NCBI GenBank assembly: GCA_029210745.1
Contig: JARGFI010000004.1
Span: 8,852-72,851 of the forward strand
Direction of reading: 5' to 3'
DNA: 64,000 nucleotides
DNA from: Desulfuromonadales bacterium
GTDB taxonomy: Bacteria; Desulfobacterota; Desulfuromonadia; Desulfuromonadales; JAHYIW01
Positions within the stretch are counted from its first letter, which is position 1, and the number at the start of each line of letters is the position of its first letter. Under the pieces are notes generated by a model. That model did not search any database, was not told the DNA's origin, and saw only the letters and a list, made by a program, of their open reading frames with translations. This document shows, piece by piece, positions 27,848 through 32,547 of the stretch. The position numbers and the translations under genes are program-made.

Positions 27848-28942
27848 TTAGTCCCTGCTCAGGATTCCTTGATCGACGCAATAATAGTCCACGTCGTGAA
27901 AAATAGTGTTACTTAATATGTTTTTATCCGTTGTTGTGATAAAGACCTGCCCCCGATGTTGACATAAATATTCAAAAAGAAACTGACGCCGTCCAAAATC
28001 GAGTTCCCCGGCAAAGTCATCGAGTAAAAGTAGCGGTGGAACACCGAACTGCTTTTCAAGATCTTCAATTTGGGCGATTTTAAATGCCAGAATATATGAT
28101 TTTTTTTGGCCTTGAGAACCGAACTGACGCAGTAATCGCCCGTCAATTTTAAATAAGGGATCATCGCGCTGAGGTCCTGCCAGGGTTGTCTTGTGTATTT
28201 TTTCGCGTTCCAGAACCCGGTCCAACTCATCACGCAACTGGTTTGCGGAATGTATATCGTCCCCCTCATTTATGATTAAATCTATGTTTTCGCGTTCATC
28301 TGGTCTATCGCAGACTATCTGTTGATATATTTTTTTCAGTCGCGGCACAAGCCGCGTCACATATTTTTTGCGCTCATCCCTGATCGCGGCACCATATTGA
28401 ACGAGATACTCACTCCATATTTTTAATTCCTGTGCCTGCGCATCTGTTCTGAGTATTTTGTTTCTCTGACGCAATACCCGGTTAAATTTTCGTGCAAGAA
28501 TCAAAAATTCAGGATTGGTATGAAATATAGCTCGATCAATTAATGCCCGTCGTTCCGCTGGTGGTCCGTTTATAATCCCGATTTCTTCGGGTGAAAAAAG
28601 TACAGGGCGCAATAAACCGGATATTTTTTCCGGAGTAATCGATTTTTTTCCGTCAACCGTGATATTTTTACTATCCCGGTCGATACTCATCGTAATGTGA
28701 TGTTCTACCCCACCTGTTGCGATCAGTGCATGTATTTCAGCTTTTGCTGTATTGTTTCTTATCAGTTCACTATTTCGCTGTGCCCTGAAACTTTTATAAT
28801 TACCTAGTAAATAAATACTTTCGAGAAGATTTGTTTTACCCTGTGCATTCCTTCCATAAATAACACTTATATTAGCGTTGGTGATATATGTCTGTTCGAT
28901 AAAATTGCGATAGTTTCGCAATGTAAGTCTTCTTAAATACAT
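27848..28942 (-). CDS. recF: DNA replication/repair protein RecF
   Basis: It has a Walker A motif ([14 protein letters not shown]), the signature FGSQGQKKS and a Walker B motif ([12 protein letters not shown]). The gene is low-GC. Confidence 0.92.
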
Positions 28943-28992
28943 TTTTTATTCACATTTAAAAGACTTTTAAAATAATTTTATTATTTAATAAA

Positions 28993-30114
28993 TTACAAAC
29001 GCATTGGCATAATAACAGCTAAATAGTCGTCATTATCATCTGGAACTATTATTCCAGGAGAAATATTATCATTTAATTTAAGAATAATATTTTCACATTG
29101 TTGTATTTGCAAAATATCAATCATAAAACGAACATTAAAACCTATAATCATTTCCGGTCCGGAATAATCAACTCCAAGATCCTCGTGTGATTCACCTAAT
29201 TCTGGATTCGATGACGAAATATTTACATTGTTTAGTGTTAAAGATATTTTTATACCACGTGATTTTTCACTTGTTAAAATTGACATCCTTTTCAATACAT
29301 GAAGAAAATCATTACGGGGAATTACAACATTATGCATATTATTTTTTGGAATAACTCTTTTATAATCCGGAAAATCTCCATCAACAAGTCGCATAACAAT
29401 CAGCGTTTTATCTTTACTGATCACAGCATTATTGTCTTGAATTCCTATTTCTATATAGTCTTCTGATTCATCTGTTATTTTTTTAAGTTCAGTTATTCCT
29501 TTACGTGGAAAAATAACGCCATCAAATAACTCATCAATATTTGTTTGTTCAATACAATGGTCTATTTGCGAAAGACGATGTCCATCGGTCGCGACCAAGC
29601 GTAAAAAATATTTTTCTTCTTCGGATATAACATTAAAAAATATTCCATTTAAATTATATTTGCTTTCATCTGTCGACATGGAAAGTGCTGTTTTTTCGAT
29701 CAAACTGTTCAATTTGGAACAGTCAATTTTTAAAAATTTTGTTTCTTCGGCTGTTGGAAAGTGTGGAAATTCATCGGCTGCCAAACCAACAATATTAAAA
29801 ACGGCTTTTCCACATTTTATTTCTATCCAACAATTTTCTTTAGATTTAAACGAAAGTATTGTTTCTGGGAGTTCCTTGATAATTTCGTAAATTTTCTTTG
29901 CTGATACGGTTATTTTCCCTGTTTTTTCAACTTGTGCCGGATAATTTGCCCGCATACCTACTTCCAGGTCGGTTGCAGTCAGCTGAATTTCTCCGTTATT
30001 TGTTGCTTCAATGAGAACATTAGCCAAAATCGGAATCGTATTGCGTTTTTCTACAATTCCCTGAATTTTACCTAGCCCCTTAAGGAAGATGTTTTTTTCA
30101 ATTTGAAATTCCAT
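28993..30114 (-). CDS. dnaN: DNA polymerase III beta sliding clamp
   Basis: This 373-aa protein starts MEFQIEKN and contains PILANVLIEA and the C-terminal LAVIMPMRL. It is the lowest-GC gene in the window. Confidence 0.95.
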   Translation of the reverse strand: MEFQIEKNIFLKGLGKIQGIVEKRNTIPILANVLIEATNNGEIQLTATDLEVGMRANYPAQVEKTGKITVSAKKIYEIIKELPETILSFKSKENCWIEIKCGKAVFNIVGLAADEFPHFPTAEETKFLKIDCSKLNSLIEKTALSMSTDESKYNLNGIFFNVISEEEKYFLRLVATDGHRLSQIDHCIEQTNIDELFDGVIFPRKGITELKKITDESEDYIEIGIQDNNAVISKDKTLIVMRLVDGDFPDYKRVIPKNNMHNVVIPRNDFLHVLKRMSILTSEKSRGIKISLTLNNVNISSSNPELGESHEDLGVDYSGPEMIIGFNVRFMIDILQIQQCENIILKLNDNISPGIIVPDDNDDYLAVIMPMRL

Positions 30115-30329
30115 GATTACTCCTCCCCCTGTTATTGTTATTTATATTTATAAAAAACATAGTAGATAGTAATAAGTCCTGTTGATTTGTTTTTATCGGC
30201 ATAATTAACTGTTTTATAAAGATTTTTTTGATTGATAAAATTGTTTATAAATATTTTTTATAAACAGGTGACAATTTTAATTTTCAAAAAAAGTCTATTT
30301 GTGAACAATTACCCACACCTGTTAACACC
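30115..30329. other. Extremely AT-rich dnaA-dnaN spacer; candidate DNA-unwinding half of a bipartite oriC
   Basis: DnaA-box-like sites are TTACCCACA (30309-30317, 1 mismatch) and TGTGAACAA (30300-30308, 2 mismatches). A TAG/TAA trinucleotide run sits at 30160-30175. An inverted repeat TGTTTATAA-N7-TTATAAACA sits at 30242-30266. Confidence 0.35.
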
Positions 30330-31706
30330 TTATCTCTCCAAACTGGCTTTAAGGGTGTTGATAGTTTTTTCCAGTTGAAAATCATCAGCAAGTCGACTTT
30401 CAATTCTTTTTATGGCATGGATAATGGTTGAATGATCCTTGCCACCAAATTTTTCTCCTATTTCAGGATAAGAACTGGAAGTAATTTGACGTGATATATA
30501 CATAGCTATTTGTCGAGGGAGTACTAATGCTTTAAGTCTTTTAGGGGATTTTAAATCTGAAATTTTTATATTGAAATGAGAGGCAACAGTTTTTTGAATA
30601 TCCTCAATACTTGTTTCCCTGTTTTTTTCAACCAGAATATCTTTAAGAACGTCTTTGGCCATGTTTATATTGATTGTGGCTGAAGTCAAACTGGCATATG
30701 CGCCAATTCTGACGAGATAACCTTCCAGCTCACGAACATTACTGCTGGCCGAATTTGCAATAAAATAACATACGTCTTCAGGCAATTTTATGCTGTTCTG
30801 TTCAGCTTTCATTTTTAAAATTGCCTGTTTTGTTTCAACATCAGGCGCTTGTATATCAGCTATTAATCCCCATTCAAAACGGGAGCGCAAGCGCTCTTCC
30901 AGCCCTGGAATATCTTTGGGAAATTTATCCGATGTAACGACAATTTGTTTATTCGATTCATAAAGCGCATTAAATGTATGAAAAAACTCTTCCTGGGTTC
31001 GCTCTTTGCCGGCGATAAACTGAACGTCATCAATCAACAGGATATCCATCGAACGAAATTTATTGCGAAATTCATCCATTTTTGCGTAGCGCAGACAATT
31101 AATAAGCTCGTTCATAAATTTTTCTGATGTGTAATAACAAACGCGCACTTTCGGATTTGCCGCAATAATGTGATTACCAATGGCATTGATCAGGTGGGTT
31201 TTGCCAAGCCCTACTCCTCCATAGATAAAGAGTGGGTTATAGGTTGTAGCAGGTTTATTTGCTACCGCCATTGCTGCGGCAAATGCAAACTGGTTGGAAG
31301 AACCTGAAACAAATTCATTGAATGTATATTTTTCGTTAATGTTAAAATGGTTGGCACAATTAAATGGGGACTCGTTATTATTTAAATTTTTCTTATCTTT
31401 TTTTTCTGCTGATTTTTCTTGTTTGTCATTGGTGATCGGAAAAGTTGTTTCACTGACGGGACGCTTTAAATCTTTATTTATTTTAAAAGTGACCTGATAA
31501 TCAGTACCGATGTCGGACAGGGTTTCACAAATGATTTCAGTGTAGTTATCGCGCACCCAGTCATGGATAAAACGATTCGGAACTTCCAGACATACACGAC
31601 CGTTGTCGATTCCTTTGAAGCGAAGGGGTTTTATCCATGTTTTAAAATGCTGAGGATTAAGCTTTTTCTCGAGATGATCAAGAATTTTTTGCCAGATATC
31701 TTCCAT
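30330..31706 (-). CDS. dnaA: Chromosomal replication initiator protein DnaA
   Basis: The track start (GTG at 31748) overlaps a DnaA box. I prefer the ATG at 31706 (MEDIWQKILDHLEKKL), which is typical of DnaA domain I. AAA+ motifs GGVGLGKTHL and LLIDDVQF are present, with domain IV KDHSTIIHA. Confidence 0.95.
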   Translation of the reverse strand: MEDIWQKILDHLEKKLNPQHFKTWIKPLRFKGIDNGRVCLEVPNRFIHDWVRDNYTEIICETLSDIGTDYQVTFKINKDLKRPVSETTFPITNDKQEKSAEKKDKKNLNNNESPFNCANHFNINEKYTFNEFVSGSSNQFAFAAAMAVANKPATTYNPLFIYGGVGLGKTHLINAIGNHIIAANPKVRVCYYTSEKFMNELINCLRYAKMDEFRNKFRSMDILLIDDVQFIAGKERTQEEFFHTFNALYESNKQIVVTSDKFPKDIPGLEERLRSRFEWGLIADIQAPDVETKQAILKMKAEQNSIKLPEDVCYFIANSASSNVRELEGYLVRIGAYASLTSATININMAKDVLKDILVEKNRETSIEDIQKTVASHFNIKISDLKSPKRLKALVLPRQIAMYISRQITSSSYPEIGEKFGGKDHSTIIHAIKRIESRLADDFQLEKTINTLKASLER

Positions 31707-31738
31707 AAAACCGGTTGTTTTCCTCTTGATACAACGAT

Positions 31739-31923: not shown

Positions 31924-31952
31924 TTGACAAAGCTTTTTGATCTGTTTAAAAG
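31924..31952 (+). promoter_or_regulatory. Candidate rpmH promoter (TTGACA-N17-TAAAAG)
   Basis: Hexamer match only. It lies about 45 nt upstream of the rpmH ATG. Confidence 0.35.
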
Positions 31953-31996
31953 TACCCTTTGCCTAAAATTCGTTAAAGTAAGGAGTTTATAAGAGC

Positions 31997-32149
31997 ATGT
32001 CCAAAAGAACCTATCAGCCGAGTCGAATCAGCCGGAAAAGAACCCACGGATTCCGCAAACGGATGCGCAGTAAAAATGGCAGCGCTGTTATCAAGCGTCG
32101 GCGTGCACGCGGGCGCAGAGTGCTCGCGGCAACGACCCCTGTAAAATAA
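31997..32149 (+). CDS. rpmH: 50S ribosomal protein L34
   Basis: It is below the track cutoff. The translation is [50 protein letters not shown] (50 aa), with an AAGGAG RBS. Confidence 0.95.
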
Positions 32150-32169
32150 CGATTATTGATGGTCTTGTT

Positions 32170-32547
32170 ATTATTCAATCTTGCGCAGAATATACTTTTC
32201 CGAAGGAAAATCGTTTACGTAAACGTCATCAATATCAGCAAACGTGGCTAAACGGTCGTAAGCTGCGTACAAAAAATTTCTTGATTGTTGTTTGTCGACG
32301 TGATTCAGTGTGCGCCTGCCGTGTGGGGATCACCGTCAGCCGCAAAGTCGGTGGCGCAGTGGTTCGCAATCGCGTGAAACGAATGATCCGGGAGTATGTC
32401 AGAATTCATTATCGGCGGCTGCCTACAGCCGCCGATATTTCCATTATAGCCCGACCCGGCACAGCCGTTCTTTCCTCTTCGCAACTGCATGCGGAGCTGG
32501 ACATTCTCCTCATGATCGGTGCGGTCGCGTCACATCCTGAAGATTGA
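32170..32547 (+). CDS. rnpA: Ribonuclease P protein component (start codon unresolved)
   Basis: The track gives only 32281-32547 (TTG start). The conserved N-terminal part [34 protein letters not shown] is encoded in the same frame upstream. That frame has no ATG, GTG or TTG between the TAA at 32071 and 32281. ATT codons at 32152, 32155, 32170 and 32173 are the only near-cognate candidates. The RNR motif [11 protein letters not shown] is present. Confidence 0.75.

Follow-up and report, generated by a model that had tools for sequence, protein, structure and literature searches.

The window, that is, the whole 64,000-nucleotide stretch of DNA analysed here, contains the replication genes dnaA, dnaN and recF of a Desulfuromonadales bacterium within two adjoining gene series, parBA-rsmG-mnmG-mnmE-jag-yidC-yidD-rnpA-rpmH and dnaA-dnaN-recF-gyrB-gyrA, an order common to the related loci with called genes. 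The three replication genes, which are essential, lie about 20 GC points below their surroundings and form the core of an AT-rich trough (Table 1). The comparison covers 64 kb of this genome and about 20 kb of each relative.

Table 1. Genes and non-coding features of the AT-rich trough and its borders (window coordinates).
Feature	Coordinates	Strand	Size	GC	GC3	Remarks
gyrB, 5′ half	26600..27828	-			0.46-0.55	Graded shoulder of the trough; GC3 0.62-0.75 farther from recF
recF	27848..28942	-	364 aa	0.405	0.359	
dnaN-recF spacer	28943..28992	.		8%		One DnaA-box-like site, TTATTCACA, at 28946
dnaN	28993..30114	-	373 aa	0.318	0.222	Compositional minimum
dnaA-dnaN spacer	30115..30329	.	215 bp	24%		
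dnaA	30330..31706	-	458 aa	0.371	0.332	From ATG at 31706
rpmH-dnaA intergenic region	31707..31996	.		0.36		Inverted DnaA box pair
rpmH (ribosomal protein L34)	31997..32149	+		0.55		GC-normal, breaks up the trough
rnpA, AT-rich 5′ part	32152..32280	+		0.39 (32182-32280)		GC 0.55 for the remainder to 32547

The proteins encoded in the trough are intact. RecF retains the Walker A, GSQGQ signature and Walker B motifs, DnaN all three beta-clamp domains, and DnaA the DnaA_N, AAA+ and C-terminal HTH domains, which are joined by a K/N-rich domain II linker. The Pfam domains of the trough genes are full length and internal stop codons are absent. Even the recF of a related locus, L111, with a GC content of 17%, nonetheless preserves the RecF motifs. 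Judged by their sequences, dnaA, dnaN and recF are functional genes and the organism's own. The longer dnaA reading frame starting with GTG, which extends to 31748, is probably not in use, and no canonical start codon is present in rnpA 5′ of the conserved FPKENRL motif (32197).

GC skew, together with a small number of DnaA boxes, would place the replication origin at the trough. Within the window, cumulative G-C reaches its minimum at 31220, inside dnaA. The dnaA-dnaN spacer, found with a length of 215-267 bp in 11 of the 11 loci examined, contains the DnaA-box-like sequence TTACCCACA (30309-30317) with repeats of the TTTATAAA type after it, as well as an inverted repeat (30223-30244 and 30271-30292), and it is a candidate for the DUE-bearing half of a bipartite oriC. 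The box pair of the rpmH-dnaA region consists of TTATCCACA at 31739-31747 (+) and ATATCCACA at 31762-31770 (-). At least one box occurs at the matching position in all 11 related loci, and both occur in eight of them. This region probably serves as the dnaA promoter and autoregulation site and possibly as the second half of oriC. Across the whole window, the number of DnaA boxes shows no excess over chance.

The original prediction described a sharp low-GC block over dnaA, dnaN and recF within GC-richer DNA. The block was recovered by segment scoring, by 1-kb windows and by the GC and GC3 of the genes, and a recount of seven 60-nt stretches counted by hand gave identical values. The maximal-scoring low-GC segment spans 27768-32014 (4,247 bp) with a GC of 0.356, compared with 0.544 in the rest of the window; for the interval 27848-32300 the values are 0.362 and 0.544. 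Non-overlapping 1-kb windows within the trough reach z = -6.0 to -8.7 relative to 57 outside windows (mean GC 0.546, sd 0.026, minimum 0.493). The other ORFs of the window (n about 61) have a GC of 0.546±0.033 and a GC3 of 0.627±0.066, which places dnaN at z = -7.0 for GC and -6.2 for GC3, the latter falling to 0.16 in its 3′ half. The spacers had been called almost pure A/T, which holds for the one between dnaN and recF; the dnaA-dnaN spacer is AT-rich without being pure. Intergenic DNA elsewhere in the window has a pooled GC of 0.53 and a minimum of 0.40. The trough is more AT-rich than this, and therefore simple relaxation to the least-constrained composition of the genome does not explain it. 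The four-fold degenerate sites of the trough (A 0.32, T 0.30, C 0.20, G 0.18) point to a strand-symmetric process.

As had been proposed, the shift reaches beyond synonymous sites. The first and second codon positions of dnaN have GC contents of 0.45 and 0.28, and the amino acid composition of DnaN is changed as well: its FYMINK fraction is 0.375, compared with 0.27-0.30 in orthologues from relatives with a shallow dip, and its GARP fraction is 0.161, compared with 0.22-0.23. The composition of GyrA, GyrB, MnmE and MnmG is essentially unchanged, with a FYMINK fraction about 0.02 higher in GyrA and GyrB, and the derived changes of GyrB show a small excess toward FYMINK residues (16, compared with 4 the other way).

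The edges of the trough are sharp only in part. On the left side, the GC3 of gyrB climbs from 0.46 to 0.64 over the first 1.2-1.5 kb or so away from recF, and on the right side the trough is interrupted by rpmH before the AT-rich 5′ end of rnpA. Such gradients recur in the relatives: gyrB GC3 rises from 0.51 to 0.84 in L001 and from 0.29 to 0.51 in L111, and in L001, L111 and L083 the GC3 of yidC drops toward the origin. A within-gene GC3 gradient of this kind is missing from L082, a relative with a shallow dip. The AT effect thus tracks position rather than gene boundaries. The step at the recF-gyrB border is too steep for a process governed by distance alone, and such steps, together with the GC-normal rpmH within the trough, indicate that gene-specific constraint or codon selection modulates the pattern.

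Selection on expression could act in a more direct way, if rare AT-ending codons or AU-rich, unstable mRNA kept the levels of initiator and clamp low and the trough simply corresponded to the dnaA operon. Rare codons indeed make up 9.6% of the trough codons and 2.9% of those in the flanks, with ATA, TTA and AGA each 4-8 times commoner in the trough, whose core coincides with the dnaA-dnaN-recF transcription unit. The highly expressed rpmH is GC-normal, and gyrA and gyrB are strongly codon-biased, with low synonymous divergence in GC-rich relatives. However, the changes extend to amino acid composition and to non-coding spacers, the gradient reaches gyrB and also yidC, which belongs to a separate, divergently transcribed operon, and in one relative (L097) the GC minimum is displaced to yidC-mnmE. 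The same genes are almost free of a dip in other phyla. Codon tuning as the source of the trough is therefore considered improbable.

An assembly chimera had been raised as a concern, since the source is a MAG and the genes involved are conserved, which can mislead assemblers into joining the origin genes of a low-GC organism, by chimerism or misbinning, to the flanks of a GC-rich one. A separate assembly belonging to the same species (GCA_032251495.1, L081) is collinear across both trough borders, with 99.79% identity over 21,122 bp, 44 SNPs and no gaps, and the same pattern is repeated in many unrelated contigs. It also appears in milder form, with dips of only 0.06-0.14, in the isolate-linked loci: the complete chromosome of D. 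versatilis, the draft assembly of G. ehrlichii and a metagenome contig encoding the DnaN of Syntrophotalea isolates. A junction cannot produce the gradient within gyrB, and no closer affinity of the trough genes to any low-GC lineage is seen. The chance of an artefact is thus negligible.

The trough is found throughout the order. At all 22 Desulfuromonadales loci with measurable flanks, dnaN lies below the flanks by 0.05-0.28 GC and dnaA by 0.03-0.23. A meta-profile built from 19 loci reaches its minimum of -0.15 twice, in the rpmH-dnaA intergenic region and over the stretch from the dnaA 3′ end through the spacer to the dnaN 5′ end, and stands at about -0.10 in yidC. Deep troughs, known mostly from metagenomic contigs, occur in several lineages scattered over the trees, with recF at 17% GC in one clade.

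Composition of this kind could also arise by horizontal transfer, and the original prediction offered as its first reading a replacement of dnaA-dnaN-recF by homologous recombination with a low-GC donor; such an exchange, recent or ancestral, would have to have remained unameliorated. All three codon positions are atypical, the proteins are K/N/I-rich as if from a low-GC genome, the left border falls at the recF/gyrB gene boundary, and potential donors exist within the order (L002, 37% GC). Nevertheless, the best DnaN matches (60-80% identity) are all from Desulfuromonadales, as are the nearest relatives of DnaA, and relatives rank alike by trough genes and by flank genes. Neighbour-joining trees of DnaA+DnaN and of GyrA+GyrB, built with standard and Dayhoff-6 recoded distances, place the window within one order at 92-100% bootstrap and with no supported conflict, at poor resolution inside the order. 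The nearest neighbours of the window in the trees are GC-normal relatives. By DnaN identity, the low-GC candidates L002 (51%) and L111 (52%) are the most distant, compared with 59-65% for GC-normal relatives. All sampled members of the order share the trough, its depth being graded, and GC3 shifts gradually inside gyrB and yidC with no breakpoints. No tRNA genes, flanking repeats or plasmid or phage affinity (identity at most 36%) were found at the locus. From these comparisons, dnaA, dnaN and recF are regarded as vertically inherited. Congruent trees and a trough shared by relatives are the outcome that the original prediction had named as refuting transfer, with a lineage-wide bias left to explain, and the cassette swap, already largely refuted, is very unlikely.

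The direction of change can be read from the nearest relative, L116, whose DnaN is 80% identical and whose dnaN has a GC of 0.44. Since the split from L116, the window branch has lost seven GARP residues from DnaN and gained none, and its changed codons carry a net -20 G+C, compared with +7 on the sister branch. Where third positions differ synonymously, the window has AT and L116 has GC at 86 sites, and the reverse holds at 32. At sites conserved in the shallow-dip taxa, DnaN has 22 derived changes specific to the window, 28 specific to L001 and 7 common to both; the same pattern is followed by DnaA and RecF. The shift to AT is a derived one that is still going on and is largely specific to individual lineages, and the polarised changes that place it on the window's own branch speak against import. 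Synonymous divergence in the close pair L100-L101 is modestly higher for dnaA/dnaN (0.52-0.53) than for gyrA/gyrB (0.32-0.43), and in the pair L091-L092 no excess for dnaA/dnaN is seen. A raised mutation rate is thus not clearly indicated, although a directional bias would not have to increase it much if it were near equilibrium.

The evidence shows vertical descent, a gradient with position, the direction and recent date of the changes, their recurrence and the integrity of the genes. Together, these make it likely that the genes were shaped by a local, directional GC-to-AT substitution bias at the origin, shared across Desulfuromonadales. The second reading in the original prediction began with an AT bias maintained locally around the origin. 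That part is upheld, and it is extended in that the bias spans the order in graded form, arose in situ and recurs. The bias would act in place and strand-symmetrically over an interval of roughly -4.5 to +2.5 kb relative to the dnaN start, at the dnaA-dnaN spacer, peaking in dnaN and fading into gyrB in one direction and into yidC in the opposite one. As a property of the whole order, it would have become extreme independently in several lineages, including that of the window. Purifying selection would keep the proteins intact, while synonymous sites and tolerant residues drift to AT-rich codons (K, N, I, F, Y). The cause may be mutational or selective. The leading guess is a mutational input linked to replication initiation, for example cytosine deamination on both strands of persistently unwound, single-stranded DNA around a bipartite oriC flanking dnaA. 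The main alternative would be selection for AT-rich DNA through nucleoid-protein binding, origin architecture or rare-codon damping of dnaA-operon expression.

Selection on the DNA itself, to which that second reading points, would maintain an AT-rich oriC domain of several kb for nucleoid-protein binding, origin organisation or melting. The remainder of the reading, in which dnaA and dnaN are targets of AT-binding nucleoid proteins or silencers and nucleoid state is thereby tied to DnaA dosage, is speculative. In favour of a maintained domain, the trough has the origin at its centre, shows strand symmetry, is conserved across the order and exceeds ordinary intergenic DNA in AT content. On the other hand, no binding protein or motif was found, and a trough depth that varies fivefold among close relatives, from 0.05 to 0.28, sits uneasily with a structural need that is conserved. 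AT-rich oriC flanks impaired oriC-dependent amplification in a reconstituted E. coli system unless the DUE was even more AT-rich (PMC12342881), and AT-rich flanks are therefore of no obvious help to melting. A maintained domain is unlikely on balance. Alternatively, the origin genes could lie in a recombination coldspot, where they would escape GC-biased gene conversion or recombination-aided selection for GC and decay to an AT-rich mutational equilibrium. The decay is strand-symmetric, and the SNP clusters resembling recombination tracts between the window strain and L081 are all outside the trough, which has 5 SNPs where 9.3 are expected; this deficit falls short of significance (Poisson P = 0.10). 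In a survey of 145 species, most had their highest recombination near the origin, and its authors argued that gBGC does not drive GC content (PMC11879095); both points run counter to this idea. Some cause would, moreover, be needed for a coldspot that spans about 4-7 kb and has graded edges, and this route is quite doubtful.

No earlier description of an origin-centred AT trough over dnaA-dnaN-recF was found in the literature. The local substitution bias proposed here sets Desulfuromonadales apart from other phyla, in which the dnaN difference at 61 loci is only 0.021±0.034, with a maximum of 0.12, compared with 0.05-0.28 within the order.

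The 1-kb GC profile of the window falls from about 0.52–0.56 to 0.316 at 28.5–30 kb, and in the composition profile this drop coincides with the cumulative GC-skew minimum. The maximal-scoring low-GC segment is 4,247 bp long, the remaining window has a GC content of 0.544, and the non-overlapping 1-kb windows of the trough lie 6.0–8.7 SD under the 57 windows outside it. The AT-richest parts are the spacers, with 8% GC between dnaN and recF and 24% between dnaA and dnaN. In the trough genes, GC1 and GC2 are lowered as well as GC3. The proteins were followed through the FYMINK and GARP amino-acid sets, which track AT- and GC-driven shifts, respectively. 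Compared with their own orthologues in relatives, DnaN, DnaA and RecF are richer in FYMINK and poorer in GARP residues, and no such shift is present in GyrA, GyrB, MnmE and MnmG. Segment scoring, 1-kb z-scores, gene GC and GC3, and protein composition all confirm the low-GC replication-gene block of the original prediction, whose hand-counted GC values were exact on recount. The trough had also been called sharp, which holds only in part: GC3 climbs gradually over the first ~1.2–1.5 kb of gyrB, and rpmH is GC-normal although it lies inside the trough, the 5′ end of rnpA being AT-rich again. The sole other clearly low-GC patch of the window is, at 15.5–15.9 kb, an ordinary divergent promoter region.

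Features of the window discussed in the text, with their composition where available
Feature	Position	Strand	GC	GC3	Remark
Dehydrogenase-like gene	14638-15504	minus			One side of the divergent intergenic/promoter region
Second low-GC patch	15400-16000		0.39-0.47		
105-aa ORF	15573-15890				Probably not a gene
Small ORF, cytochrome bd oxidase operon	15879-16103				Other side of the divergent promoter region
cydA, cytochrome bd oxidase operon	16113-17660				Other side of the divergent promoter region
Segment aligned to the second assembly	18993-40114				21,122 bp
SNP cluster	20472-20494				4 SNPs
Maximal-scoring low-GC segment	27768-32014		0.356		
recF	27848-28942	minus	0.405	0.359	
dnaN	28993-30114	minus	0.318	0.222	
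dnaA	30330-31706	minus	0.371	0.332	
DnaA domain II linker	31030-31340	minus			~Residues 95-150
Cumulative G-C minimum	31220				
Inverted DnaA boxes	31739-31770				Start-to-start spacing 23 bp
rnpA	32074-32547	plus			Open frame from 32074; FPKENRL motif at 32197
SNP cluster	38292-38331				6 SNPs
SNP cluster	38726-38860				4 SNPs
~61 other ORFs of the window			0.546±0.033	0.627±0.066	

In this Desulfuromonadales MAG, the trough locus corresponds to the canonical origin region. The genes are arranged as parB-parA-rsmG-mnmG-mnmE-jag-yidC-yidD-(rnpA)-rpmH on one side and dnaA-dnaN-recF-gyrB-gyrA on the other, and this synteny is confirmed in relatives. This neighbourhood of rpmH next to dnaA-dnaN-recF-gyrB and the switch of the GC skew, with the cumulative G-C minimum at 31220, mark it as a chromosomal origin region. 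Full-length Pfam matches cover DnaA (DnaA_N, Bac_DnaA and Bac_DnaA_C), the three beta-clamp domains of DnaN and the SMC_N domain of RecF, in which the Walker A, signature and Walker B motifs of the ATPase are intact. A DnaA box lies 40–100 bp upstream of dnaA in all 11 loci compared (the window, L001, L082–L084, L088, L089, L097, L103, L104 and L111, the handles denoting loci of relatives). It belongs to an inverted pair in eight of them and stands single in L001, L103 and L111. The inverted pair is probably a site of dnaA autoregulation, a part of oriC, or both. The dnaA–dnaN spacer of the same 11 loci is uniformly 215–267 bp long and AT-rich, with 0–3 DnaA boxes, and the upstream boxes and this long spacer would fit an origin bracketing dnaA. 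Across the window, the number of DnaA boxes is not above chance and forms no significant cluster, and no RNA element or tRNA gene was found in the region.

Two coding details of the region may be added. The domain II linker of DnaA contains a K/N-rich low-complexity stretch (…NDKQEKSAEKKDKKNLNNNESPFN…), which fits an AT-driven expansion or replacement where the protein is under least constraint. The open frame of rnpA contains no ATG, GTG or TTG upstream of the conserved FPKENRL motif, only ATT, ATA, GTT and CTT codons. The relatives use TTG, GTG or ATG, 8–12 codons upstream of this motif, and the gene is uncalled in L081, the second assembly of the species. Either rnpA has a non-canonical (ATT) start or the local drift towards AT has eroded its start codon.

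The concern that the trough is an assembly chimera is dispelled by L081 (GCA_032251495.1), an independent assembly which crosses both trough borders collinearly and reproduces the junctions, with 99.79% identity, 44 mismatches and no gaps. Some of the SNPs separating the two assemblies are clustered, with 4–6 SNPs within 22–135 bp, and look like short recombination tracts. All clusters of at least four SNPs are outside the trough, in which 5 SNPs were found against 9.3 expected (Poisson P = 0.10).

The first reading offered for the trough was the replacement of the cassette by recombination with a low-GC donor. The composition and codon usage of the three genes are indeed atypical, as they would be in an island: GC is 0.32–0.40 against 0.546±0.033, and rare codons are three times enriched (9.6% against 2.9%). 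The remaining evidence speaks against this reading. A gyrB-anchored scan of species-representative genomes returned Desulfuromonadales as the nearest relatives. The closest is L001, a Trichloromonas MAG (GyrB 79%), which shares the gene order and the trough (GC of gyrA 0.59, gyrB 0.54, recF 0.38, dnaN 0.29, dnaA 0.34, yidC 0.43 and mnmG 0.56). The best database matches of DnaN (80%, then 60–66%) are all from Desulfuromonadales (Desulfuromonas, Syntrophotalea, Geothermobacter). Identity to the window is even across relatives, at 77–85% for GyrB, 64–71% for DnaA and 52–65% for DnaN, and DnaN is least similar in the low-GC lineages L002 and L111. Neighbour-joining trees of GyrA+GyrB (1,554 columns) and DnaA+DnaN (765 columns), standard as well as Dayhoff-6 recoded, have every supported clade in common and place the window within Desulfuromonadales with 92–100% bootstrap; its closest neighbours in the DnaA+DnaN tree are GC-normal taxa. 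Presence among relatives is not patchy, as genes, order and dip occur in 22 of 22 Desulfuromonadales loci with flanks. No discrete breakpoints were seen, GC3 shifting gradually inside gyrB and yidC. No tRNA genes were found in the window, flanking repeats are limited to short low-complexity ones without meaning, and no integrase or transposase family is represented among the genes called in L081. Trees, identity ranks, within-gene gradients and the polarised changes described below thus reject horizontal transfer, whether from outside or inside the order. A plasmid or phage origin of dnaN is rejected by its identity of at most 36% to any such record. A separate oddity concerns L004 (DNQL01000068.1, labelled Elusimicrobia UBA11179), whose DnaA (59%), DnaN (52%) and MnmG (76%) are Desulfuromonadales-like, and whose GyrA and GyrB cluster with those of an Acidobacteriota locus (75–92% bootstrap); a mislabelled or chimeric bin, or a gyrBA transfer, is possible.

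The dip, defined as how far a gene falls under its flanks, is a property of the whole order. In the same 22 loci, dnaN lies 0.05–0.28 and dnaA 0.03–0.23 under the flank genes; in 61 loci from other phyla the dnaN dip is 0.021±0.034, with a maximum of 0.12. Its depth is mild in Geothermobacter ehrlichii (0.06) and D. versatilis (0.10, with GC3 of 0.68 against 0.9), intermediate in Syntrophotalea (0.14, with yidC also at 0.36) and deep in L104 (0.17), L089 (0.21), the window (~0.23), L111 (0.24) and L001 (0.28). When 19 loci are aligned on the dnaN start, their meta-profile shows a trough reaching from about −4.5 to +2.5 kb, with minima in the rpmH–dnaA intergenic region and in the stretch from the 3′ end of dnaA through the spacer to the 5′ end of dnaN, and a secondary dip in yidC. 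In the deep-trough taxa, GC3 gradients run inside gyrB and yidC, hence the effect depends on position and is unbounded by genes. The most extreme example of the phenomenon is recF of a marine-metagenome Desulfuromonadales clade (L111, L106, L107 and L108, three of them short contigs), with 16–20% GC. In L111 it has a GC of 0.17, a GC3 of 0.07 and 52% FYMINK and adjoins a gyrB of GC 0.45; the gene, at ~11.1–12.2 kb of the locus, retains its Walker A, signature and Walker B motifs and has no internal stops. In another locus, L097 (ORXD01000349.1), the GC minimum is displaced to yidC-mnmE-mnmG (0.37–0.44), dnaN and recF being less affected (0.44–0.49), which indicates that the trough centre can move.

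The direction of change was polarised with the nearest relative L116 (DnaN 80% identical, dnaN GC 0.44) and seven outgroups. On the window branch, DnaN lost seven GARP residues and gained none, and gained seven FYMINK residues and lost two. Changed codons amount to a net −20 G+C on the window branch and +7 on the sister branch, and of the differing synonymous third positions, 86 have AT in the window against GC in the sister and 32 the reverse. Derived DnaN replacements at sites conserved in shallow-dip taxa are mostly private (22 in the window only, 28 in L001 only, 7 shared), DnaA and RecF likewise have mostly lineage-specific ones, and the trees intersperse deep-trough taxa with shallow ones. 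The AT shift is derived in place, continuing and recurrent.

The trough is therefore a genuine and reproducible feature of native DNA. Behind it stands a local GC-to-AT substitution bias, symmetric between the strands, whose centre is the origin region; this bias is common to Desulfuromonadales, has been amplified independently in several lineages and opposes purifying selection on functional genes. Several causes can be weighed against its features. Transcription-strand-specific deamination is rejected, since the four-fold sites of the trough show strand symmetry (A 0.32, T 0.30, C 0.20, G 0.18). Relaxation to the unconstrained composition of the genome is rejected too, since the other intergenic DNA of the window is less AT-rich than the trough (pooled GC 0.53; 0.40–0.57 in the ten lowest segments listed). 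A strong mutation-rate hotspot is unsupported by four-fold divergence, which reaches at most ~1.6 times the flank value in one close pair and is not in excess in another. The candidate ranked first is mutational input linked to initiation. Selection on AT-rich DNA, via nucleoid proteins or origin architecture, is ranked second; an AT bias maintained around the origin was the second reading of the original prediction. Its simple form, in which AT-rich DNA helps melting, is weakened by the finding that AT-rich oriC flanks hindered replication from oriC in vitro, except where the DUE had become AT-richer (PMC12342881), an effect that could account for the extremely AT-rich spacers. Gene-specific expression tuning follows as third and a local lack of a GC-restoring force as fourth; a recombination coldspot is made less plausible by recombination being generally highest near the origin (PMC11879095).

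The first-ranked cause can be developed into a scenario which we put forward tentatively and hold to be rather improbable in its entirety: replication initiation itself may be locally mutagenic in Desulfuromonadales. The DNA around a bipartite oriC flanking dnaA would stay unwound for long or be replicated under skewed conditions, and a symmetric GC-to-AT pressure would then act over ~±2–4 kb. Under such pressure, essential replication genes would become extremely AT-rich (recF down to 17% GC) in repeated, independent events, and the DUE spacers would be forced to become AT-richer still in order to stay the preferred melting site. If true, this would be a bacterial counterpart of eukaryotic origin-associated mutagenesis, recorded in the genome.

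Composition-based detection of foreign DNA would flag dnaA-dnaN-recF as an island, so that, of all chromosomal genes, those inherited most vertically fail the test for a reason other than transfer. For island finders and MAG quality filters this is a concrete caution. The trough shows that a kb-scale substitution regime tied to position can persist in a bacterial chromosome and be strong enough to reshape essential proteins, and the rare-codon load in dnaA and dnaN may affect the dosage of initiator and clamp. Being origin-centred, graded and recurrent in separate lineages, the trough offers a natural system for two questions: whether origin firing in bacteria leaves a mutational footprint, and whether AT-rich DNA around oriC is selected. 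Both are approachable in culturable relatives (Syntrophotalea, Desulfuromonas).

The trough shares features with several known systems. Like a DUE or an intergenic oriC by dnaA, it is centred on the origin, the spacers flanking dnaA and dnaN are AT-richest (8–24% GC), and DnaA boxes occur upstream of dnaA and in the dnaA–dnaN spacer. A DUE comprises tens of bp of non-coding DNA, whereas AT enrichment here extends over ~4–7 kb, covers three essential coding genes and alters amino-acid composition. The sharp local GC drop, rare codons and K/N/I-rich proteins recall genomic islands and targets of xenogeneic silencing, this being the signature used by island-detection methods. Unlike islands, the trough has a congruent phylogeny, order-wide synteny, the same pattern in all relatives, graded within-gene edges and changes that arose in place, and lacks mobility genes, tRNA genes and flanking repeats. 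Daubin and Perriere reportedly described, in 2003, regional base composition in which AT content rises and GC3 falls on approaching the replication terminus. In both cases the composition of vertically inherited genes is tied to their position relative to replication landmarks, which presumably arises through local mutation or repair regimes. The terminus effect amounts to a few GC3 points over hundreds of kb, while the trough, at the origin, is a lineage-specific change of 30–45 GC3 points within a few kb. In Xylella fastidiosa, a slight AT enrichment has been stated for genes of replication and for those close to oriC (PMC8495750), an effect that is small and attributed to function class, the single sentence on the near-origin genes citing a yeast-origin paper. 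A kb-scale trough, a gradient and a protein-level shift are undescribed in that report, and a full-text literature search yielded no account of an AT trough in coding DNA centred on the origin. The replacement of GARP by FYMINK residues in intact essential genes with GC3 down to 0.07–0.2 resembles that in reduced endosymbiont genomes. There, the AT shift is genome-wide and attributed to repair loss and drift, whereas here it is restricted to a few kb inside a genome of 50–60% GC.
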